This document shows, piece by piece, positions 4,166-56,498 of a stretch of 64,000 nucleotides of DNA. Position 1 is the stretch's first letter, and every line of letters starts with the position of its first letter. Location of the stretch: the NCBI GenBank assembly GCA_001662655.1, contig KV460249.1. One strand, given 5' to 3'. Source of the DNA: Pseudogymnoascus verrucosus. Taxonomy: Eukaryota. Below the pieces are notes generated by a model that saw nothing but the letters and a program-made list of their open reading frames with translations, was not told the DNA's origin and did not search any database. A program made the translations under genes and the position numbers.

Positions 4166-4256
4166 GGGCCTAATCCGGGATTGAACCGGAGACCTCTTAC
4201 AATTTGAATGCTGATGAGCTCCCAAAGCAAGAATTCTACCACTGAACTATCAGGCC
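4166..4256 (-). tRNA. tRNA-Pro(TGG) with a 19-nt intron (4202-4220)
   Basis: The minus strand reads GGCCTGA TA GTTCAGTGGTAGAAT T CTTGC TT TGG G [intron] T GTAAG AGGTC TCCGG TTCAATC CCGGA TTAGGCC C. The mature length is 72 nt. A T-run Pol III terminator follows. Confidence 0.95.
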
Positions 4257-43352: not shown

Positions 43353-45585
43353 CTACCTAGCACGCGTATACTTCCCCTTCCTCTGCTCCATCTGCAAACT
43401 CTCCTGCTGACTTGGCAACGGCCCACGCTTCCTTATCCCCGCAGCACCCGCCTCCTCAGCACTCTGCGGCGCAAACCCAGGTATTGGCGGCGGCACGCCT
43501 CCAAGCCCAGGAGGAAGTCCCGGCATACCCGCCATCCCCGGTGGAGGCGGTGGGAATCCAGGTGGGAGCGTGAATCCCGGCGGTAACAAGCCAGGCGGCA
43601 AGATGCCCGGTGGAGGGGGAGGGAATTGCCCGCCCTGCCCTGGGGGAGGTGGAGGCGGGATACCAGCTTTCTTCATCATAGCTGTGAGTGTAGCTAGATC
43701 GGGGGGGTTATTCGGGTCCATTGGTGGAGGCGGTGGGAGGTTGCCGCTCAGTCCCGGTAGACCAGAGAGGTTAAATGGTAGTTGCGGGGGAGGCGCGACA
43801 GCGCCCATACCAGGGATCATTGATTGGGATCCAGGGAGTGGTAGGCCGGGGATACCTGGGAATCCAGGTATCTTAGCAGGCATTTTCTGGTCCTCCAGAC
43901 CATCCATTTCATCTTCCATCTCCTGCTCCTCATCCTCCTGGCGCTTCTGCCTCCAGTTTCTGCGATCCCACGTCCCCTCCGCCTCCGCGGCCGCCTCGCC
44001 GATATGGTAACGGTCTTTAAAGACTGTCGAATCGCCTGGGCGCGCGCGCGTCCAGAAACGTGTGAGCCTATCGTTGGAGCCCGAGGCGAGGATGTGGCCG
44101 AGCGGGTGCCAGTCCAGGGACCAGATGGCGAAGTCGTGGGCGAAGGGGATTTTGTGGGCGGGGTGGATGGTTTGCGACGGCGCCGTGGCCGGGTCAGGAC
44201 TATCACATACGGCGGTTGAGGGCATGGTGCCTGCGGGTGTGTGGGGTTCGTCGAGGAGGTAGTGGAAAAGGGACCCGTCGGAGCCGCCGGTGCTGAGGAG
44301 ATTGGAGTGGATGGGATGCCAGGTTATGGTTGAGATGTCTTTTTCGTGGCCTTTGAGGAGGCAGATGTCGCGCATCATTCGTAAATCGAAGACGCGGGCT
44401 GTTTGGTCTCGTGCGGAGGTAGCGAGACATAATCCACGTACGCGTTCGAAGAGGGTCTTGGTGATGGTGTTTTTGTGGCCGTGGAGGGTGGTTAGGCAGC
44501 GGCTTGTTCGGGGATCCCATAGCTTTACTAAATGATCTTTGGACCCGGAAACGATCAGGCCCTTGGTTGGATGCCAGTCGACGCTCTTGGCGTCCCATCC
44601 GTGGCCAGTAATGGTCGACTCTTCAACTCCCCCTGCAAAATCAAAGATCTTAAGAGTTGAGTCGTCTGAAGCTGTGACAAACTTGGAATCGTTCGGGCTG
44701 AAGGCCATATCTCTGATGGGGTCGCCGTGGCCCTGAATAACCTTGACGTTGTTGAAGTTGGGCTGCCAGTATTTGATAATACCATCATGATCAGCCGAGA
44801 TCAGCCAGTCGCCGTTATGTGAGTATGACAGCGCCCTGATGGCAACGTCGTGAGCCTGCTGGATGGTCTCGAAGTTGAACCCCGTGCCGTTCCATAACGT
44901 GAATTCACCGCTGCTGGATGCAGTCAACAACCTGCGGCCTTCTGGCGTCCAGCGCACAACGTTCACTGGATGCTTGATCTTGTTTAAGGAGGAATGTAGA
45001 TGATGAGCGGGTATAGTATCAGCAGCCTTGTCTATCCTGGCAAGGGGAGGAAGCATCTGAGATTGTCAGTACGCGTCACGTGTCATCGACAATGACCTGT
45101 TGATGCAACGGGTACTCACATCGACGATGTAGCTGGGACTCGGCCTCTCCATCTCTCCTTGGAGGCGTGCCTTGTAGCGTGGCTGGCGGTTTTGCATCCA
45201 ATGGACCATCGTCGCGCCGTAGTCTGTGACGGGACCTGGGTTGTATTGTCAGTTGTATGTTCATCGTAGTGCAAGACTGTGAAATAGAGAGTAGACAAGG
45301 ATGTGAAGTAAAACTCGGTGCCTTCGAGGAAGATATGCGCATAGCCAAGAACAACGGATGGCAGCATGCAAGTGCGGCCGATGGATGAGAACTGAAAAGG
45401 AACGTATATTGAGTTGAGAATCATAGCAACTCACGTCGTCCACGTCCTCTCCCAAAGCCACCACCTTCATAGCCACCACCTCCTCCACCCTCATCTCCCC
45501 CTCCACCGCCTCCCCCTCTGCCTCCTCCTCCTCTACCACCACCACCACCTCCATAGTCACGCTCCCCACGCTGTTCGTACGCCAT
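43353..45585 (-). CDS. PFS2: Polyadenylation factor subunit 2 (WDR33 orthologue); 2 introns
   Basis: Gly/RGG-rich N-terminus, [38 protein letters not shown]40 repeats, [22 protein letters not shown] and a Pro-rich tail. Confidence 0.96.
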
Positions 45586-46587
45586 GGTGATCTAGGTCGT
45601 TCGTCGAGGTTATTACCGCATGGCTGGCCAGAACGGAGCTTCTCTCTTCTTCTCTGATTCACCGTCCTCGAGTGAAGCTAGCCTGTCTGAAGTAGTCGAT
45701 TCCCTTTGATGCAAAATATATATATATATAGTTTAGATAGGTCACGAGATCTCAGTCGTAGGTTTTCTGGGGTTCCATTGGGGGAATTTCCGCTCTGGGA
45801 TTGATTGCTATGTATGGCAGTCGATGGGGTCGCGACAAGGCCGGAACGGAACAATGTATTGACCGAGACGACAAGGTATAGCGGAAGTATCTCTGTCGGG
45901 AGTTACTAAATTTACAATTTTCACACATTGGAGAAGTAGTCTGAACCCACTGTCTCATGCAAATGCCAAGGTACCGCGGTACAAAAATACCTCCAACGTA
46001 CATGGATATCACTCGGTGCTGCCATGGCATGCCATGTTCTCCAACTTGGCGTAGTATTGGCCCATTTAGCTCATTCGGCCTTCTCAAGACAATTGATAAT
46101 TGATATTGAAACAATCTTACCATGTGCAGCATGGTTAGCTATTGCAATAGTATGGTTCTATATGGGTTTATATTATAAATACTGTATCTATCTAGCTACC
46201 TGCATACGCCATCTATCTCACTTATTTCGACTGTTTCGGTTTCTTGCATACACGTTTTCTATACATGATGCAGGAAACGGCAGGAACCCAAGCAGGGAAT
46301 AGATAACGAAATACTTACGAGGGGCGAAAAAGCCCAGCCCTTGTCCATGTTTACATATCCCCACCTTCGTCTTCCCCCTCCTCCTCCACTTCTTCCCCAA
46401 TTCGATATCCTTCCTATCTCTCCCGATCCTTGATCCTTCCCCCTCGAGTCTAGATTTTCTATTTTCTATTTTCTACATAATAAGTCTCACAAGCTTGTCG
46501 ATGATCTCTTGCCCATCGTATATATACTCCATATACATGGCCCGTCAAACACAGTCCTGATATGAAAACCCCCCCCACGAGCCGACA

Positions 46588-48256
46588 ATGGCCACAGCTG
46601 TGAATACCAGGACGACGACCGTCAACTCGACCCTCACCCAGCGATCAGCTCGTTCCAATGGCCGCGCTCAGAGTGCGCAGACCCCACTCAACTCGGCCAG
46701 TGTCCCAGCCATCGACGTGCCAGAGGTCAGTCGGCGTCTGCGCATAAAGAAGAAATACAGACATGTGGCAGCTGTCCACTCGCGCCCCCAGAACACCGTC
46801 CTCAGCCATGACGCAGCCGAGGTCCCCAGTTTCCTCGGATTCAGAAATCTGATGGTCATCGTGCTTGGTGAGTGATTCTGCTGCCAGAGAATCTAGAGAA
46901 GAAGACCTATCTAACAGCTTGTGTTCACCAGTCGTCGGAAACCTGCGCTTGATGATTGAAAACTTCAACAAGGTATGTTCTGCCACTCTCCAACAACCAA
47001 AATGATAATCGCGCTGACCACCACCCCCCCAGTACGGAGTTCTCATCTGCCTCCGATGCCACAACTACAAACGCCACGACGTCTTTATCGGCGCCACCCT
47101 CCTCCTCATAATCCCCTGCCACCTCTTCGCCGCCTACATCATCGAGCTCGCCGCCGCCAAGCACGCCAAACGCCAGCTCGCAGCCAGTAACCCCCGCTCC
47201 GGCGCCGAAACACCCACCCCCACCGAAGCCGAGCGCAAGAAGTTCAACACAGCCTGGGAGCTGATCGCCTGGCTGCACGGTCTCAACGCGACCCTCTGCC
47301 TCCTCATCACCTCCGTCGTCGTATACAACTACATCCACCACCCCCTCATCGGCACTCTCTCCGAAGTCCACGCCATCATCGTCTGGCTCAAGACCGCCTC
47401 CTACGCCTTCACCAACCGCGACCTGCGCCATGCGTACCTCCACCCCTCTAAGCGCATCGAAGATGCCCTGCCAGACATCTACCTGCAGTGCCCCTACCCG
47501 CAGAACATCTCCCTCTCCAATCTAACCTACTTCTGGTGGGCACCCACCCTCGTCTACCAACCCGTCTACCCCCGCTCCCCCCGCATCCGATGGTCCTTCG
47601 TCGCCAAGCGTCTCGCCGAAGTCTTCGGTCTCTCTGTCTTCATCTGGGTAGCAAGCGCGCAATACGCCGCGCCCCTCCTGCGGAACTCGCTCGACAAAAT
47701 GGCTTCCCTGGAACTAATCTCCATCCTCGAGCGGCTCATGAAACTCTCCACCATCTCCCTCGTCGTCTGGCTCGCCGGCTTCTTCGCGCTCTTCCAATCC
47801 TTCCTCAATGCCCTCGCCGAAGTCACCCGCTTCGGTGACCGCGACTTCTACAGCGATTGGTGGAACTCCGATAGCGTCGGCGCGTACTGGCGCACGTGGA
47901 ATAAACCCGTCTACCAATTCATGAAGCGCCACGTCTTCTCTCCCCTCATCGGACGCGGATGGTCCCCCTGGGCTGCCTCAGTCGCCGTCTTCGCGCTGTC
48001 AGCAGTGCTGCATGAACTCCTCGTGGGCGTGCCGACGCATAACATCATTGGTGTTGCGGCGCTGGGGATGCTGGCTCAACTGCCGCTTATTAAGCTCACG
48101 GCGCCGTTTGAGAGGGCTGGGGGGCATTATGGGAAGTTGGTGGGGAATACGGTGTTTTGGGTTAGTTTTGTGTTGATTGGGCAGCCGCTGGCGGCGTTGT
48201 TGTATTTTTTTGCGTGGGAGGCGAAGTATGGGAGTCATTTGAAGGGGAGGGTGTGA
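46588..48256 (+). CDS. MBOAT acyltransferase, DGAT1-type (diacylglycerol/sterol O-acyltransferase); 2 introns
   Basis: SFLGFRNL, NLRLMIEN, WLKTASYA, YPQNI, APTLVYQ, FGDRDFYSDWWN, WNKPV and catalytic His in SAVLHELLVG. Confidence 0.93.
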
Positions 48257-48697
48257 AGGGCTGGGGACTCGGATGTTGATGGGTGGAGGTATATAGATGT
48301 AGTGATAGGAGTTGAAAACTGGGTCTGGGTTCTTCTTTTAGGATATAGCGTTATTGGGCTGTTAATATGGGAGGCTGGTTTTGATTTGATAGCAATGCAT
48401 GGAATTGCCCATCGTGAAGATGATTGCAGATATATCAAATGGCAAACATGTGGGTTTTTACAGATGAGTGGAGTGTGCACCGTATGGTATAAACCTCTAT
48501 TTCCAAGACCAAAACTATCCATCAGTTCAGCCAATAGCCAATGTAAATGCAACTGCTATGCAAGAAAGTAACGCCTCATCATCCCAAAACACCCTATCCC
48601 CCTCCCCTCCCAAAACCAAGAACCAAGCACTCCCTCCATATCAAATCCGTTCCATTCATATCAAGTCCATACCCAAAATAACTCCATCCCCACCCGC

Positions 48698-50116
48698 TCA
48701 CACAGCAGCAAAACTCAACAAACTCCCCGCCGTCAACCCCGCCACAAGATTAAACCCCATAAACGCCCCCGCCGCCTCCCTCTCCTCCTCTTCCACCGCC
48801 CCGGTAGCCCCCATCATAGCACTACTCGCCAACCACCCATTCGTGAGCCCGAAACCGAGCTGCACGATTAGGAGATAGAATAAATCGCTCTGCACCCACG
48901 CGCCGCGGCCGGAGACGTTGCTTAGTGCGTAGAGCGGGAGGAAGGCTGCGCGAGCGAGGGAGACTGCGAAGAGAGAGCGTGGTCGGTGGGGGAGGGAGGA
49001 AGTGAACAGCGTAGACAACCGACCCAGCAAATCCCCCGTATTCCAGATCAAGAAAGCGAGAGGGATGAAAATCGGTGCATGCAAGTACCTTGGCGTAGGA
49101 GCGGGATGCACGCTAATGATCTGCGCTGTGTAGACGGGGAAGAACATCGTGAGTGTGAAGCAGAGGAAGATGGAAGCGGAGTAGAAGGGCAGTTGCCGGT
49201 AGAGGGCTGGCATGGACATTACTTTCCTCGCCGGTGCCGCGGGGGTGGGCGAGGTAGGTGTTGGGGTGTGTCGGCGCGCGAGGGGGGTGAAGGCGAGGAG
49301 GGTGATGACGGCGACAAAGGTGGCGGTGAGGAAGTAGAGGAATGCTGATGTTGAGCTTGTTTGCGGTGGTGGGACCGCGGGAGGTGTGTTGTCGGTGGAT
49401 GAGGGTTCTTCGGGGACGGCGAGGACGGAGACGATTTGTGCGATGCTGGGGAGTACGCCGGCGACTGCTTGGCCCGTCATGATGGCTTGCATGTAACTCG
49501 GATGCGCGAAGGTGGCTACGAACGCCAACGCCCCGTTTTGGAGCAGCCCTGTTGCTGTACTAGTCGCTAACACGGTGGCGAGGACGAAAGCGAAGTACAC
49601 CCCTGGAGACACGGTGACGAAGAAGATAGTTGATAGAGCGAGGATTGTGAAGACGACTATGTCGATTATGAGAGCCAAAATGATGCGGCGCGGGTAGGAA
49701 GCTCCGGCTTGCAGGTTCGTGAGGAGGAACATGGATGCCAAGTTGGCGGTGGTGGCGACGGTTAGGATGGAGGATTGGTAGTTGACGAGGATCCAGGGAC
49801 TGCCTTGAAAGCGGGTTGCGAAGTAGGTTGCGGCAGCTAGGAACATGTTCCTATACACAGATGTCAGTTGGTGATCGCGGACGCCCGGTAGGTCGGATGA
49901 AGCTTACCATGCCCACAGCATCGCGACTCCGAGAATCAGGAATACAGTGTATTCCACCCACGAGAACGGCTTCTCTTCAAGTGCCAGTGCCTCTTGTAGT
50001 GTAATATCATCGGCGCCACCCTCCTCATCCTCCCTCCCAACAAGCTGTTCATACTCATCCCCCCGCACCTTCTGACTCCGCAGAGTCGCCCGAAGGCGTT
50101 CAATGACAGCGTTCAT
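48698..50116 (-). CDS. Equilibrative nucleoside transporter (Fun26-like); intron ~49851-49907
   Basis: FLILGVAMLWAW/NMFLAA, MTGQAVAG, WNTGDLLGR and FGLTNGW; multiple TM helices. Confidence 0.93.
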
Positions 50117-50530
50117 AACGAACAAGGTAGACCGATTCGGCCTCTCGAAGCTTCACCAATGTATCATAGACTCCAAAAAACCACTGATCCAAAAGGTGGC
50201 GGTGGTAGATGTAGGGTTGATGGGTGGATTGTTGTGTTGCTGTTTGTCGGTGTTGGTGTCACAGGGTGAACCCCAATTCACCTGGCTGGATGGCTAAAGG
50301 CACGCCCTCGCCTATCCCTACCCTTATCTCCAGCCGCCCCACCGCGCGCCACCACGCCGGGCCATCCCGCATAAGCGCGTCAACCGCTATCCCCTGTTGA
50401 TATCAAAATAGGCACGTGACCTGTAAATTACTAGTATCATAATGGGCTTCCGATTATTATATTTCTCCGGATCTTCAAAGCCTACTGCTATCTCTGAACT
50501 AGTCTAGGCCCTCCGGAGAAAGCAGCTCTG

Positions 50531-51464
50531 ACCAAACCAGACTGAACTAAACGCAGACGGACGAACCTTTGTCCGTCCACGCAAAATCCAGTCAAAGGCA
50601 TCAAATCTGTGCAGAAAACGTAGATGGACACTGATCTAGCCATTAATCCGGCTTAGATCAGCATAGACAGGACGGAGGTCGGATAAACGTCCGACCGGTT
50701 TTGCGCAAACCGTCACCAAAATCGACGGTTTGCGCGAAACCGCAGAATGTGGGGTAACAGCATTCTCCTTGGTCCTCTGTATTAGGAGACTCATCTAGCA
50801 CAAATGAGACTGGGCAGAACCAGCCGGAACATTAACGGAACCCGGACAAACCTTCGTCCAATTTTGCGCACATATGTCCCCTAACCTCTCACTCTGCGCG
50901 AAACTACAGGATGTGGGGTAAATCTGCATTCTCTGCAGTCCCCTTTCTACATCAGGACTGCAGAGCATGCGTGACTTGGTCTCCCATATAAGACCAAGCC
51001 AAACCAGCTCCGACAAGACGGAGCGCGGATAAACCTCCGTCCGGTTTTGCGCAAACCAGTCGGTGCAACTGTGTGTTTGCGCGGAACCATAGAGTGTGGG
51101 GTAATACCGTGTGAGAACTTCCACCAGCACGTACTCTACCCATCCCTTGGATTAGGAGAGACTATATGAGACGGACCTAAACTAGACTAGACGGACAGAA
51201 CGGAGCCTAGGCAGGCGTTTGTCTGATTTCGCGCTTACCTACTCGCAAACCCGTTACTCTGTGCGAAAACGTAGACCGTGGAGGTTACCCATGGGGGTAA
51301 TTTCTCACATACTCTACGATCCTATGCATCAGGGGACACTTCCAACCCAACCCAAACCAGACGAACGCAAACGAGCTCCGAATAAACAGAACGCAGACGG
51401 ATGAACCTTCGTCCGCTTTGCGCAAATCCGTCTCTGAGATTGCAGGTTTGCGCCAAAATGCAGC
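50531..51464. repeat. Array of six degenerate hairpin-rich units (120-190 bp spacing), non-coding
   Basis: Approximate consensus ACGGA-N4-CGGAYAAACCTTCGTCCG-GTTTTGCGC-N26-GCGCGAAAC-N-AGA-N-TGTGGGGTAA. Cores lie at ~50551, 50671, 50834, 51017, 51199 and 51390. Confidence 0.9.
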
Positions 51465-52222
51465 TATCCCATCCTACCCCTTACATCCCCCTCCCCCTCC
51501 TAACTCGTCCCTACCCGCCCCTCCTTACTGCCTCACGCACCACCCACCGCAGCTACTACCTCAGTCCCCTCCCTAGAAAAAAGCATGTATAAATTTAAAT
51601 CCTAACCCCCACCCAGAGATATCAATTCCAAAAAAAAAAACGCACAACACACCTACATACATACCCCTCCAATCACAGGACCTGGGCCGCATGGTATGCA
51701 ACCCTGTCTTGGCCAGACTGGTCAGGGGTCAGCGTGTCAGGGGGGAATCACAGATCACAGTATCACAATCAAAGAGCAAAGTTTTGCAAGAGGGAATCTT
51801 CTTCTATTCCCGCCATCCCCCGGTTCACTCTTTTATCTAATCGAATATCATGCCAACATCATCTCCCCCTATCCCCATGCCCAGGCTACACCATCCAGCC
51901 GGCAGCACATCGTTCATATACCCGGCCGACATCTATTAAACACCCCTCACCCCATCCTACCACCACCCCATCCCTCCTTACATTCCCCAGTCCCCCAAAT
52001 CAAAACACAAAACACCCCCAATGCGCCAGCCTACCCCACAAATATACAAGTAACAAAAAAGGAATCCCTGAAAAGGTCGTCGTATCGGGAGGGCATCCAT
52101 CCATCAGCCGTCCCTCGCTGCACGCTCAAAAAACCGCGTCTTTGCTCCCCCCCCCCAAAAGTCCCAAAAAAATACATCAAAGAAAAAGGTTGCAAAGTGT
52201 TCAATCGTCACCCCCCACCTCA

Positions 52223-55200
52223 CTACTCCATCCCCTTCCCCTTCCCAGGCGTATCAGTCTTAGCAGGCGTCCCCGGCACCTCCGGCGTATAAAAAGCAGC
52301 CTGCTTGAACCCCCCCATCCCCTCATCCTCATCCACATCCTCCACCACCGGCAACGGGGTCCTCACCCCCTCTTCTTCGGAGAGCATGCTCACAGCCGCA
52401 TCGCTATCGCTCGCCATACCGCCCTCTCCCAATTCAAGCGTCGCCGCGTGGGCAGAGAGGCGATTATGCAACTCCCTAAAGCTTCTTGCGGCGAGGGTAT
52501 TCGTACTCGCCTCCGAACCACGATGATCCACACCACCGCGGTCACCACCACGCACCTCCCCCTCCCTCTCCACACTCGATCCCCTCTCCTGCGCCTGCGC
52601 CGCCTTCTTCAACCTCATCCTCTCCTCGGCAGACATATTCGCCAACGCATCCCCAAACGTAATAACACTAGCCTTCTTCCCATGAATGACAAAGCTGCCC
52701 GTCCCCCTCGCCAAATGATCATCCCTCACCACCTCCTCCCCCTCCTTCGCCGCCGAGGACGAAGAGTCCTTGCCCTTCCGACTACGGTGCTGGGTAGGGA
52801 CGTGCGCGTCGCGGAGGGTGCGGTGGATGCTGCGACGGATTTTGCCGCGTTCGAGTTTCTCTTTCTCTTTCTCTTTCTCGGTGGAGTCGGAGGGGCGGGA
52901 TGAGGCGTCGTCGGTGGTGGCGGTGGTGGGGGGTTCTTCGGCGATGGAGTCGGATGCTAGGGTTGTGTCGATGAGGCCCGCTTGTTCCAAGGCGATGTTC
53001 TCGCCGGCGTCTTCATGGGGGGAGGAGACGGAACGTTGTGGGTCTGCGGAGGTGGTGGGGGTCATGCGGGGGTATGAGGATGTGTGGGATAGTACTGGGC
53101 TCCTTGGTTGTGCGCCAACACCGGGGGAGGGCTGTTTCCTTGGCCCGTCGAATTTCAGAGGTGGGAGTTCCCATGATGCTTGTGCTTTGTGGAAAGTTGA
53201 AGCACTCTGTGCGGCTGAGGGACTGGTGAAGAAATTGTCGATGTCGAAATCACTCGGTGATGCCTGTGGTATCGGAGTTGGGTGCTGAGATTGCAAGCTC
53301 TGTTGAGGAGAGAGAGCAGCGCTGTTCCTGGAACTCACTGCGGCGAGACTGTCGCGGTCGTTTTGTTTGGCCAAGGATTCCCCCGAGGGGTTGGAAGTAG
53401 GGAGTAGCGGCTCGGGCTTTTCACCTTCCCCGGTCTTCACTTCTTCATCCAAGTCCATGGACAGGATATCCCTGTGACATCTCAACCTCCAGATCTCCAT
53501 ACGGACCCATCTCAGCTTTGCCGACATGCGGCCAGCTGCCAATACTACTTGTTCCCTCGTCTTTGGCTGGATAGGTGCGAGGATTTGCAAGTGACGAGCA
53601 TTCCGAAGCTGAGCGTCTAATTGCTTAGTAGCAATAGCTAGCTTCTCCTCTGCCTCTGTAATCTTCTGCATCATGATCTCTCTCCTTGCGGCCAGGATAT
53701 CTTGGGCCATCTGGAGATCGATCTTTCCGCTGATAATCTGAACTTCACCAGTAGGAGTCTGCACAGAGCGTCCGGAGTTCGCGCTGCCCAGCCTCCTAAT
53801 CCCACGAGTGCGCTGCCCCTCGTAATTCCCACCAACCACGCCACGCATTCTCACGCCGGCTGTGCGGAATGCTGCAGCGTAGTTGAGCTTCGCGAGCCAG
53901 TCATTCATTTCATCTTCGTTGTCAGCCAGGAATGTTTCCTCGAAGCCTCCATGGCGAACGAAGAGGAACGCGTTCTTGTGCTTCTTATACGTAGAATCGA
54001 GCAGGGCGACAGCATCATCCGTTGACATCAATGCATCCGGTTTGAAAGATTCAATCGGGGGCTTGAAGGTGACTGGAATGCCATCATTACCCTGCTTGAC
54101 GTGGTGGTCGTGTTGATGTATCAAGCTCTTGATCCAGGCGGTATTGCGGAAGAAGTATAACTGCGCTCCTGTGAGAATTGCGCCCCATTCCTGCCAAGGG
54201 GACCTCGTCTTCTTCTTCTTCGGGTCCTTGCGCCATAGTAAGCCGACCTTGGTGATCTTGATATCGACGATTCCAGGGTGTGCTTCCTCGGGGTTCATGA
54301 CCGTCTTGTCAGACATGAAGGCATCGGGGCGTGACCTTGCAGATATAATCTGCAAAACACCTGTTCTGAAGAATGTTCGCTGCAAGTCGTCCAGATTGAG
54401 GGACAGCGCAGTACCAATGTAGCTGTAGTGCTCCTCCAAGTTCATTGCGTCCTTCAGATTGGGCCGTAACGAGTCAAGCTTGCTGTCGATAATGAGAGTA
54501 TACGGATCAACAGGCTCTTTCGAAGGGCGCTTCATCGGATCCATACTCGACCGAGGGAATAAACTCTTCTTCTTCGACTTGTGCTGGACAATTCGCTCGC
54601 CATTGATATCAAGATCATCCTCCACATGGATGAAGGGCGTGTACGAAATATTGTCATAGAAACACTCCAAGATCTCGTCAAAGATTCCCTCTCCCTGGGT
54701 GTTCCTGCAATAATCCTGCTTCTGCATCTTATTCTTGTTATTCTTGTTGAAGACATCGGTATGCAGGATCAGCAACGAAAATGCAATGAAATATGCCTGC
54801 TCGGGCGAAGCGTAGATGCCTGGGTTGCACTCGTGGTACCGGTGTGCAAACGATTGCAGACACCTGTCGATATGCTGCGTCTCCTTGGGCAGTTCGACTT
54901 CCATAAGAAGCTTGCGGAGGGCCATATCCATAGGATCGCCGAAGAACCCAAACCCACGCATGTAGCTCCGGAGAACCTGCTGTGAGAACGTATCGCTGCC
55001 TTTCGACAAGACACTTGCAACGGCGCCTCGACTTACAGCCTCTTCCAGCCGCAGGAGGTACTTTGCCGGGCTATCATCCTGATGTCTCTCGGGTATGATA
55101 ATTGGCTCTCTTGTGATTTGGATCGAGTTGTTTTTCGAGGTAGCAGAGAGTGGACTTGCTTGTCCGGAAGCGTGAGGCATTGGGTCAGGGCGAAGGCGAT

Positions 55201-56498
55201 GGGTCAAGTTGAATATATCCCCGAAGCTCTTCCTGCCCGTCGACGTCGACGTGCGGCTGGACGGAAGAGGCGGAGTATCTAATGGCTCATCGGCCTGCCC
55301 GTTTCTCAAAGATGTCAGGGTAGAAGACCTGCCCCTGAGGCCACGTCGAGTAGGGGAAGATTTGTTGGAGGCCGTCGAGTCGCGGCGGATCAATGGTGAC
55401 CCAGGGGCTGCAAACAGCATAGACGCCTTAGCGATGGCAGAATGGGTGTGAACGGCACCCTCGTTATCATCGGCGCCTTGCGGTAGGCGTAGAGTTTGTG
55501 CGGCGCCGGAATCCGTGCTCGCTCTACTAGTGTTGTTGCCAGACTTATCCGGTACGGAAAGCGAGTTAGGCTGGTCATTATGAACTACCTTTGGCGGTAA
55601 GGGAAAGAGCGGCTGAGGCTTCTTTCGCCGCGGTAGTCTAAAGAACGTAGTTGTAGTATGTGTTGTCTGTATCGTAGTAGTCGTTTGCGCATACACATGG
55701 TTGTCCGCAGAGCTCCCATCAGACCTCGAGGATTCGGACAGCCGATTGACTGGCAATGCAAGCGTCGATCCGGCATCATCTCCATAAGGCGGAGGCATCG
55801 CACCTGGGACCTGAGAGCTGTGACGTACAGGTTCATCGAATGTAACACGGGATGACGAGTTCCCTTCGGATAGCGTCTTCCTCCTCTCCTTCTTCGACGC
55901 ATTTATCAGTTCGTCAAACGCGGATGGCTTAGGGTCCGATGGTTTTATGCCAGGTAGCTTGAGCTTCGACTTTTTCTTCTGTGTGGTGTTTACGTCGAGA
56001 GTCGGTGCTGTTGTGATGATCTCGGGAGCTGCCGAGGGAACGTCAGTAACTTCTCTACATGCTTGGAGCCCAATCGGGATCAATGTCAATCAATTGAAGG
56101 AGGTGGAACCTACGTCTCGGCATAGGAGGGGCAGCATCAGCCTCAGCCTGCTGCCTCGCCCTCGTCGACAGCTGCGAATCCGACGCATGCCTAAACTTCA
56201 TCATCGAGAACCGTCGCGACTGCTTGGGCGTCGCATCCTGCACCGGCGGTGACACCGGCCTATCCTCCGGGACCGTCTTCTCCGTCGAGGAAAACGCAAT
56301 GGCCGGCGCGGACGACTGCGGCGTCAGCTCGAGCGAATCTGACGCGCCAGCGTCCCTGCGCGGCAACTGCTCGCTGAGTCTCCCCGCCCTGGTATCCGCA
56401 GCTCCTGTCGGGCTGGGGAAAAGCAGCGAGTGGCGGCGATTGAGATCGGTCTCGCTGGCCTGGCCGCGTCGACGCAGCAGGCCTTGGATGATGGGCAT
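52223..56498 (-). CDS. Sec7-domain ARF-GEF with PH domain (Syt1/Sec73-like); intron 56055-56113
   Basis: Sec7 motifs MDMALRKLLMEVELPKETQHIDR and AFSLLILHTDVFNKNNK. PH motifs KVGLLWRK..WQEWGAILTGAQLYFF and EMNDWLAKLNYAA. Confidence 0.92.

Follow-up and report, generated by a model that had tools for sequence, protein, structure and literature searches.

Upstream of a nucleoside transporter gene of Pseudogymnoascus verrucosus, contig KV460249.1 carries an array in which short inverted repeats enclose cores that differ from unit to unit in sequence and are almost constant in length. What kind of element takes this form? We analysed the array within a 64,000-nt stretch of the contig (hereafter, the window), starting from a preliminary description that had offered three options, namely dyad protein-binding sites, a small or guide RNA precursor, and the iterated ends or recombination sites of a mobile element. 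Our analysis confirms a real feature of unusual form. It is probably a DNA-level element, either regulatory or a neutral repeat, found at one locus and in no organism other than this fungus and close relatives. The reading that we favour, tentatively and with something short of even confidence, is a bank of putative protein-binding dyads with constrained spacing. New in the present work are the two-type alternation of the units, the palindrome richness, the position upstream of a FUN26-type gene, the four relatives with unit turnover, and GCGCGAAA as a right arm.

Six diverged units arranged head to tail

The array (50531-51470, + strand) consists of six head-to-tail units of ~180 bp that are old and diverged, with 65-74% identity among them (Table 1). 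From 5' to 3', a unit comprises an upstream block (ATGAGAC ... AAACCAGC ... ACANNA), hairpin 1 (CGGAY, 8 nt, GTCCG), a left arm, an interval, a right arm, a tail (YAGR ... TGTGGGGTAA) and a spacer. The arms form an inverted pair, TTTYGCGC on the left and GYGCGAAA on the right; this outer 8-mer pair is common to units 2-6, and the arms are the best-conserved columns of the alignment, in which GCGC is invariant or almost so. The tail is clear in units 2-5, where it ends in GGGGTAA, and hairpin 1, the upstream block and the tail make up conserved blocks of ~100 nt per unit. The tail of unit 5 also carries an inverted GGGTAA copy (TTACCC-ATGG-GGGTAA at 51285-51300), a small, locally templated duplication such as strand switching would be expected to give.

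The GCGC-type arms start at 50579/50609, 50703/50732, 50866/50896, 51049/51079, 51231/51261 and 51420/51450. Their offset is 30 bp in five of the six units and 29 bp in unit 2, the interval between them measures 26 nt (25 nt in unit 2), and successive units lie 124, 163, 183, 182 and 189 bp apart. These positions, offsets and distances, as well as the six core sequences, agree with the preliminary description. Its account of the unit as a small hairpin followed by an inverted pair also holds, with the correction that three units (1, 5 and 6) have degenerated: GTGC is found in the arms of units 1 and 5 and GCGCCAAA in unit 6, unit 1 lacks TTTT, and the left arm of unit 1 is ACGC in this window, where a G at 50579 in three relatives (X2, X3 and X5, see below) restores GCGC.

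As had been proposed, a covariance model (R1) was built from the alignment of the six modules and the 64 kb were scanned with filters off. The model matched the six units only, all on the + strand, with 53.5-93.4 bits, while the rest of the + strand in the 64 kb reached at most 9.1 bits. A repeat finder recovered direct-repeat families D1-D7, which are one family, and Tandem Repeats Finder did not call the array because its units are too diverged. Thus, related units follow each other head to tail at one locus, which is the arrangement of a minisatellite or higher-order tandem repeat.

Two diagnostic characters change state at every step along the six units: hairpin 1 has either CGGAC or CGGAT, and the right arm is preceded by either YTCT or GTTT. 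Spacings of 346-371 bp are also seen between members of repeat families. The array therefore consists of a two-unit (B-A) higher-order repeat present three times. In even units the arms are extended inward (AAACC/GGTTT) to give palindromes of 13-19 bp, and in odd units only ~8-9 bp can pair, with a pyrimidine-rich loop between them. The palindrome TTGCGCAA, which had been pointed out as a bZIP-type site, is present in the even-numbered units and absent from the others.

A core of free sequence and fixed length

Over the 87 alignment columns of the six units, the mean pairwise difference is 0.40. Nowhere in the module is divergence higher than in the core (13-17 columns), whose pairwise difference of 0.66-0.67 is near saturation, compared to ~0.33 in its flanks. 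A permutation test that scanned the alignment found this clustering of divergence significant, with p = 0.0015 for 13-column windows, 0.0002 for 15 columns and 0.0001 for 17 columns. Moreover, the transition/transversion ratio (Ti/Tv) of the core is 0.83 among all six units and 0.47 among units 2-4, near the value for unrelated sequence, and that of the flanks is 1.75-1.88. The central ~17 nt had been described as different in every unit; the cores are as quoted, and their truly unrelated portion is ~13-17 nt, since the units share GTC next to the left arm and YTCT or GTTT next to the right arm, both on the inner side.

Despite this saturation the core length is constant, whereas the inter-unit spacers vary in sequence and by tens of bases in length, in line with the fixed spacing and free sequence first reported for this locus. 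Set against a rough expectation of ~0.5-1 indel per core lineage, such constancy would have a probability of the order of p 0.02-0.1, which is an estimate and not a computed test, and is suggestive, not decisive.

Could mutation produce this pattern in place of selection? The array might be a functionless, decaying tandem duplication of the minisatellite type, which we consider a serious, if doubtful, possibility. Uniform neutral decay, however, does not yield a 17-nt core at 0.67, with Ti/Tv 0.5, flanked by blocks at ~0.33, with Ti/Tv 1.8, and it is the spacers, not the cores, whose lengths have changed freely.

Palindromes and possible mutation by template switching

A functionless repeat need not decay uniformly. 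Units would be gained and lost by unequal exchange, and template switching between the arms of quasi-palindromes, a mutation mechanism that perfects or rewrites several bases and leaves the length unchanged, would leave the cores scrambled and give individual units palindromes of their own. The array indeed holds 15 perfect hairpins whose stems reach 6 bp or more. One hundred dinucleotide shuffles give 3.0 +/- 1.6 such hairpins, and no more than 9 occur in any of 63 other windows of equal size; for stems of 7 bp or more, the array has nine, compared to 0.7-0.8. This excess is ~fivefold and includes unit-specific, non-homologous palindromes located in the spacers. Furthermore, the cores of units 2 and 4 extend their palindromes with unrelated sequence (GTC/GAC versus CAGT/ACTG), and the edge units 1 and 6 are degenerate, as would be expected of a decaying repeat. 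The odd-unit cores (1, 3 and 5), by contrast, are non-palindromic, so that template switching cannot explain them.

The traces of repeat-induced point mutation (RIP) are borderline, which also suits a functionless repeat. The array had been taken as free of RIP erosion, and this is only roughly right: its GC content is 0.51, but TpA/ApT is 0.91 and (CpA+TpG)/(ApC+GpT) is 0.96, just inside the range commonly used as RIP-positive.

The array in four relatives

To follow the array across species, we compared the window with contigs of four related organisms (X2-X5) that share 27-37% of its sampled words. All four carry the array at the same locus, between the same flanks. In X2 and X5, the region 50004-52198 aligns in one piece, with 82 and 79 substitutions, respectively. 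For the more distant X3 and X4, alignment of the array at 80% identity or more is limited to pieces of modules, for example 50675-50757 (8 differences) and the core and right arm of unit 3 at 50875-50903 (3 differences) in X3, and 50690-50756 (1 difference) in X4. The core of unit 2 is identical across the four relatives except for CA>TT at 50717-50718. The array thus predates these species and its cores are ordinary heritable sequence, new units arising by duplication with the core carried along.

Unit number and order vary among these genomes, as they do in minisatellites, and the unit gain and loss that had been proposed for examination was found in X3 and X4. X3 shows joints of ~+181 bp between units 1 and 2 and of ~-191 bp across units 4-5, close to one unit each, and X4 has two unit-2-like copies, while its units 3-5 are not recognisable and are seemingly missing. 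On this comparison the array changes through gain and loss of whole units, which is what unequal exchange in a functionless repeat would give. The differences of the relatives also cluster in palindrome arms, as template switching would predict: four X2/X5 differences fall within the arms of the spacer palindrome 50926-50970, and others lie at 50694 and 50740-50741 in unit 2. At 50689 and 50694, X3 is identical to the window and X2 and X5 differ from it, matching the unit 4 sequence, a pattern that may reflect conversion between units.

Folding and pairing

A scaffold with a variable loop of fixed length is also the layout of a possible + strand non-coding RNA (ncRNA). It would be made as one long hairpin-rich transcript or as a precursor cut into ~90-110-nt RNAs, in which hairpin 1, an 8-bp closing stem and the tail would present a unit-specific loop of 13-17 nt that could pair with other nucleic acids. 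We judge such an RNA unlikely. Conserved blocks that exceed the length of a protein site, and an AT-rich TATA-like stretch located 60-80 bp before unit 1, would suit it; the pairing tests do not. Of the alignment cells in stems, 85.7% pair, compared to 83.5 +/- 1.2 when partners are shuffled among units (38 of 500 shuffles were as high), and the covariation score of 0.196, compared to 0.179 in shuffles, was reached by 133 of 500. Neither of two alternative hairpin-1 models gave covariation above controls, and the alternative register was worse.

Folding energies lean only slightly to one strand. The RNAalifold consensus is somewhat better for the + strand (-12.9 kcal/mol, with a covariation term of -0.08) than for the - strand (-9.0 kcal/mol). 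The whole array folds far better than shuffles, with z -10.6 on the + strand, but the - strand folds about as well (z -9.4), and such strand-symmetric folding is what DNA palindromes give. Taken singly, and relative to mononucleotide shuffles, unit 2 folds far better than chance (z -6.9), whereas the z values of the other five + strand modules, -0.1 to -2.0, show no clear gain in stability.

Two further features could be taken as signs of RNA structure. Stem mismatches comprise 12 G-U cells versus 6 A-C cells on the + strand, but this excess is traceable to ~two ancestral C-to-T changes. In unit 5, hairpin 1 has undergone four substitutions, including both bases of one pair, and still forms all five pairs; it should be noted that context-dependent mutation on both arms of a palindrome can mimic compensation. 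The units conserve the arm sequence itself and not its complementarity, which points to sequence-specific recognition.

Known RNA classes were not recovered. Over the whole window, Rfam 15 at gathering thresholds returned one tRNA (4166-4256) only, and at E up to 10 the best Rfam match in 49500-52500 scored 18 bits against a threshold of 51, i.e., chance level. No box C/D candidate (C box RUGAUGA and D box CUGA joined by a terminal stem, with one C-box mismatch allowed and a stem of at least 4 bp) was found on either strand of 50450-51550. A box H/ACA snoRNA has two hairpins joined by a hinge, with internal pseudouridylation pockets, an H box and an ACA 3 nt from its 3' end. By eye, ACANNA precedes hairpin 1 in units 2-6, but the 26-nt interval is too short for an H/ACA pocket plus upper stem, and the hairpins of the spacers pair perfectly, leaving no pocket. 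The loss of units in a relative also argues against an RNA.

A narrower version of the RNA reading makes each unit a small + strand RNA gene or processing module, the array being a tandem set of scaffolded 'address' or guide RNAs of an undescribed kind, with new members made by duplication and rapid loop divergence. It is a long shot. A search for core targets within the 64 kb, as the preliminary description had proposed, gave 2 shared 11-mers between core complements and the sequence, against ~2.9 expected, and the cores thus have no complement there beyond chance.

Coding readings were rejected as well, in agreement with the earlier statement that the region holds no credible open reading frame. 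In a six-frame reading, no frame is open across all units. A 118-aa - strand frame over units 3-4 was compared with 22 candidates, all near-length proteins, and none matched at E <= 0.01; the TTTGCGCAAA palindrome accounts for the 'FAQ'-type peptide repeats. A splice-site reading (GGG|GTAA...YAG) was set aside by eye, as its position +5 lacks G and the exon frames are inconsistent.

Putative half-sites upstream of a transporter gene

We propose that the inverted 8-mers (TTTYGCGC and GCGCGAAA-type), at their fixed 30-bp offset, would serve a sequence-specific DNA-binding protein or complex as half-sites. The core would be filler, free in sequence and held in length because it sets the distance between the two sites. 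The dyads would sit in the upstream control region of the nucleoside transporter gene, and the same region also makes or keeps many short palindromes. With respect to the transporter start codon (50116), the array occupies positions 415-1355 bp upstream, the upstream location seen in promoter tandem-repeat enhancers. Given that the arms are conserved by sequence, that covariation is not found, that both strands fold equally and that the array is located upstream of a gene, a dyad array fits best among the three options first put forward. The position next to a CACGTG box and an AT-rich stretch, and the finding that module pieces are what aligns of the array in X3 and X4, count in its favour as well. 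Protein binding, the identity of the protein and the effect on the transporter gene are what we infer from this fit.

The right arm provides a lead. Exact copies of GCGCGAAA stand at 50732 and 50896 (+) and at 51227 (-), in arms of units 2, 3 and 5; they occupy 3 of the 12 arm positions and are all 3 copies in the 64 kb, the remaining arms being one-mismatch or degenerate forms. An 8-mer of the GCGCGAAA/CRCGAAA type, as found in clusters of Swi4/6-dependent cell-cycle boxes (SCBs) or E2F sites, is thus present. GCGCGAAA is an E2F consensus, which yeast Swi4 (SBF) and E2F1 bind in vitro, and it can replace the SCBs of the CLN2 promoter to give Swi4-dependent cell-cycle expression (PMC4862756). 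We take the match to an E2F/SBF site as a lead, not a test.

Several observations weigh against selected dyads. At least three GCGCGAAA copies occur in 27 of 100 shuffles of the window, so that their number is not unusual per se, and the copies descend from one ancestral site by duplication. The ~100 nt conserved per unit go far beyond the need of two 8-mers, whose centre-to-centre distance of 34 bp is not a whole number of helical turns. The G-U cells described above lean slightly to a + strand RNA, and X4 seems to do without units 3-5. Moreover, the modules appear unprotected over short times. Relative to X2, for which the counts rest on the 40 of 171 differences and 12 of 32 indels listed (up to 50965), the first half of the array differs at 24/435 positions (5.5%), more than the left flank (16/527, 3.0%), which includes coding and promoter sequence. 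Among the same differences listed, the modules (15/258) are no lower than the spacers (9/169), and the unit 2 module has 9/88, with one change in an arm (50733). Divergence that is no lower in modules than in spacers, and higher than in the flank, also favours a functionless repeat.

Resemblances to a CreA/Mig1 site (SYGGRG, with GTGGGG in the tail), to a C/EBP-type site (TTGCGCAA) and to a zinc-cluster site (CGG-N12-CCG, in hairpin 1) are presumably weaker or not borne out. The literature matches listed for TTGCGCAA in fungi are mostly primer sequences. A Reb1 site was considered and rejected: the tail of units 2-5 reads TTACCCC on the - strand and lacks the position-7 G of TTACCCG, a core whose mutation abolishes Reb1 binding (PMC5052057). 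For Rsc3/30, whose motif is CGCGCG (PMC7822557), the array appears to offer a lead only, as it holds just the 5-mer GCGCG.

Mobile-element and CRISPR readings

Spaced inverted repeats resemble recombinase or transposase sites, and the array could be a relic of a mobile element, made of subterminal repeats, iterated ends, recombination sites or an integrated small-replicon multimer. Units 1 and 6, which share derived features of hairpin 1 (family D4, 83% over 36 nt), would suit such an origin, as would a 44-nt look-alike of the unit 6 dyad (51417-51460; 7 differences, 2 gaps) on a 1741-nt contig of X5 with unrelated flanks. This look-alike may be a chance match (rough E ~0.1); alternatively, the X5 genome may hold a second dyad standing alone. 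We nevertheless hold a mobile origin to be highly improbable. The covariance model detected the units nowhere else in the 64 kb, and the matches in the four relatives are confined to the syntenic contig of each, save for three 34-44-nt pieces on other contigs of X5. The array is old and syntenic. Moreover, no transposase, recombinase or cas-like gene was found among the five long frames scanned around it (43356-56089), which are Sec7, nucleoside-transporter, MBOAT and WD40 frames and one without a match. The mobile-element option of the preliminary description is not supported.

Pattern scans of other sequence collections gave a similar result. A metagenome scan returned 14 loci with a single match each, unrelated flanks and no second unit, and a viral scan returned 50 loci with chance matches; on all 64 loci the covariance model scored at most 15.7 bits, compared to 53-93 for the real units.

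Superficially, the array resembles clustered regularly interspaced short palindromic repeats (CRISPR), in which a palindromic repeat alternates with unique segments of near-constant length. CRISPR arrays, however, stand beside cas genes in prokaryotic or viral genomes and have near-identical direct repeats of 21-48 bp that alternate with unique spacers at a constant period, whereas this array is eukaryotic and its units are 65-74% identical at a period of 124-189 bp. Its unique 17 nt lie inside an inverted repeat and not between direct repeats, and the new units of a relative are duplicated with the same core. A CRISPR reading was rejected, since neither the direct repeats nor an adjacent cas gene were found and the neighbours in the five frames scanned are eukaryotic Sec7, ENT, MBOAT and WD40 genes; the earlier decision not to call the locus CRISPR was sound.

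Comparison with known repeat systems

Among known systems, the tandem-repeat enhancers of fungal promoters come close in layout, with head-to-tail repeats of 100-200 bp and variable copy number upstream of a gene of a filamentous ascomycete. In Penicillium digitatum, for example, five copies of a 126-bp enhancer lie upstream of PdCYP51A (PMC8471628). Those repeats are young and near-identical and their enhancer activity has been shown, whereas the present units are old (65-74%), form dyads around scrambled cores of fixed length and are known from sequence.

Clusters of SCBs and MluI cell-cycle boxes (MCBs), bound by SBF and MBF, or of E2F sites in G1/S promoters likewise bring several GCGCGAAA/CRCGAAA-type 8-mers together upstream of a gene. 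Ten sites are present in upstream regulatory sequence 2 (URS2) of the yeast HO promoter. The CLN2 promoter has three SCBs (PMC4862756). Unlike the array, the known clusters are built neither of 180-bp tandem units nor of inverted pairs at a fixed 30-bp offset.

Minisatellites and higher-order repeats share with the array the single locus, the head-to-tail order, the degenerate edges, the two-unit pattern and the gain and loss of units. The array differs from them in that its divergence is strongly uneven, its core length is fixed and its palindromes are in ~fivefold excess. The Xist A-repeat consists of repeated hairpin modules in a long non-coding RNA; its short hairpin-forming cores also stand in tandem with variable spacers, whereas the units of the array are much longer, conserve sequence rather than pairing and are known from DNA alone. 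It is thus the combination of old units, inverted 8-mers at a fixed offset, saturated cores of fixed length and a fivefold palindrome excess that sets the array apart from enhancer repeats, SCB/E2F clusters and minisatellites.

If the dyads bind protein, the locus would be a natural experiment in building a fungal control region by duplicating a composite site, with half-site spacing under selection and the DNA between left free. An E2F/SBF-type motif would also be connected to a nucleoside transporter gene in a way that can be tested. If the array is neutral, it would be a clear example of palindrome-driven multi-base mutation within a tandem repeat, and a caution against taking every eukaryotic pattern of repeats with unique cores of fixed length for a guide-RNA system. 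Under either reading, a CRISPR-like interpretation can be set aside.

Genomic setting

The coordinates of the array and of the features on either side are collected in Table 1.

Table 1. Units of the array, spacer palindromes and flanking features in the window.
Feature	Position	Strand	Details
FUN26/ENT-type nucleoside transporter gene	48701..50116	-	Start codon 50116; one intron after exon 1; Pfam PF01733, E 1.9e-38
CACGTG box and AT-rich TATA-like stretch	50413..50470	.	Between array and transporter gene; sequence reading
Unit 1, degenerate edge unit	50531..50628	+	Hairpin 1 50558-50575; left arm ACGC 50579; right arm GTGC 50609; 53.5 bits
Spacer palindrome, unit-specific	50631..50661	.	CTGATCTA-15 nt-TAGATCAG
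Unit 2 module	50668..50760	+	Hairpin 1 50680-50697 (alternative 7-bp stem 50677-50696); 91.4 bits
Unit 2 dyad	50699-50706 / 50732-50739		TTTTGCGC / GCGCGAAA; within 19-bp-arm palindrome 50696-50742 (I1); tail ends GGGGTAA at 50757
Unit 3 module	50833..50924	+	Hairpin 1 50843-50860; dyad TTTTGCGC 50862-50869 / GCGCGAAA 50896-50903; 88.1 bits
Unit 3 core and tail			Core pyrimidine-rich, unpaired; tail to 50921
Spacer palindromes, unit-specific	50926..50998	.	16-nt arms 50926-50941 / 50955-50970 (one mismatch; I5); CTTGGTCT-8 nt-AGACCAAG at 50975-50998
Unit 4 module	51016..51107	+	Hairpin 1 51026-51043 (alternative stem GACGGAG/CTCCGTC 51017-51041); 93.4 bits
Unit 4 dyad	51045-51052 / 51079-51086		TTTTGCGC / GCGCGGAA; tail to 51104
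Unit 5 module	51198..51303	+	Diverged hairpin 1 51208-51225, all five pairs kept; 69.2 bits
Unit 5 dyad	51227-51234 / 51261-51268		TTTCGCGC / GTGCGAAA
Unit 6, edge unit without GGGGTAA tail	51388..51470	+	Hairpin 1 51398-51415; dyad CTTTGCGC 51416-51423 / GCGCCAAA 51450-51457; 67.3 bits
Sec7-PH guanine-nucleotide exchange factor gene	52226..56089	-	Pfam PF01369, E 3.3e-33; stop codon ~760 bp beyond unit 6

The nearest protein-atlas clusters of the transporter are from Ascomycota. In its 5' region (50036-50227), eleven substitutions and one 1-nt deletion are common to all four relatives, so that the window lineage is the odd one out at those sites. The CACGTG box and AT-rich stretch between this gene and the array are a possible core promoter, as judged from their sequence; both read alike on the two strands, and divergent transcription from them is therefore conceivable.

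On the right side, GC skew is -0.33 to -0.52, compared to -0.06 to -0.08 in the array, which thus lacks the C/G skew of its neighbours, as initially noted. From 51470 to 52400, across the Sec7 3' region, the + strand is strongly C-rich (GC skew to -0.52). A 434-aa + strand frame at 51599-52903 was taken as spurious, being of low complexity, without a Pfam match and overlapping the real Sec7 frame. The part next to the array (~51460-51630 or 51790) is unaligned at 80% in X3 and X4, and 51632-52200 has diverged by 2-3%.

To the left of the transporter gene lie a WD40 beta-propeller gene (43356-45065, -) and an MBOAT acyltransferase gene (47018-48253, +), both of which look like ordinary housekeeping genes. 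Farther away, the tRNA gene at 4166-4256 (-; 91 nt, 48.4 bits) is long enough to contain an intron.

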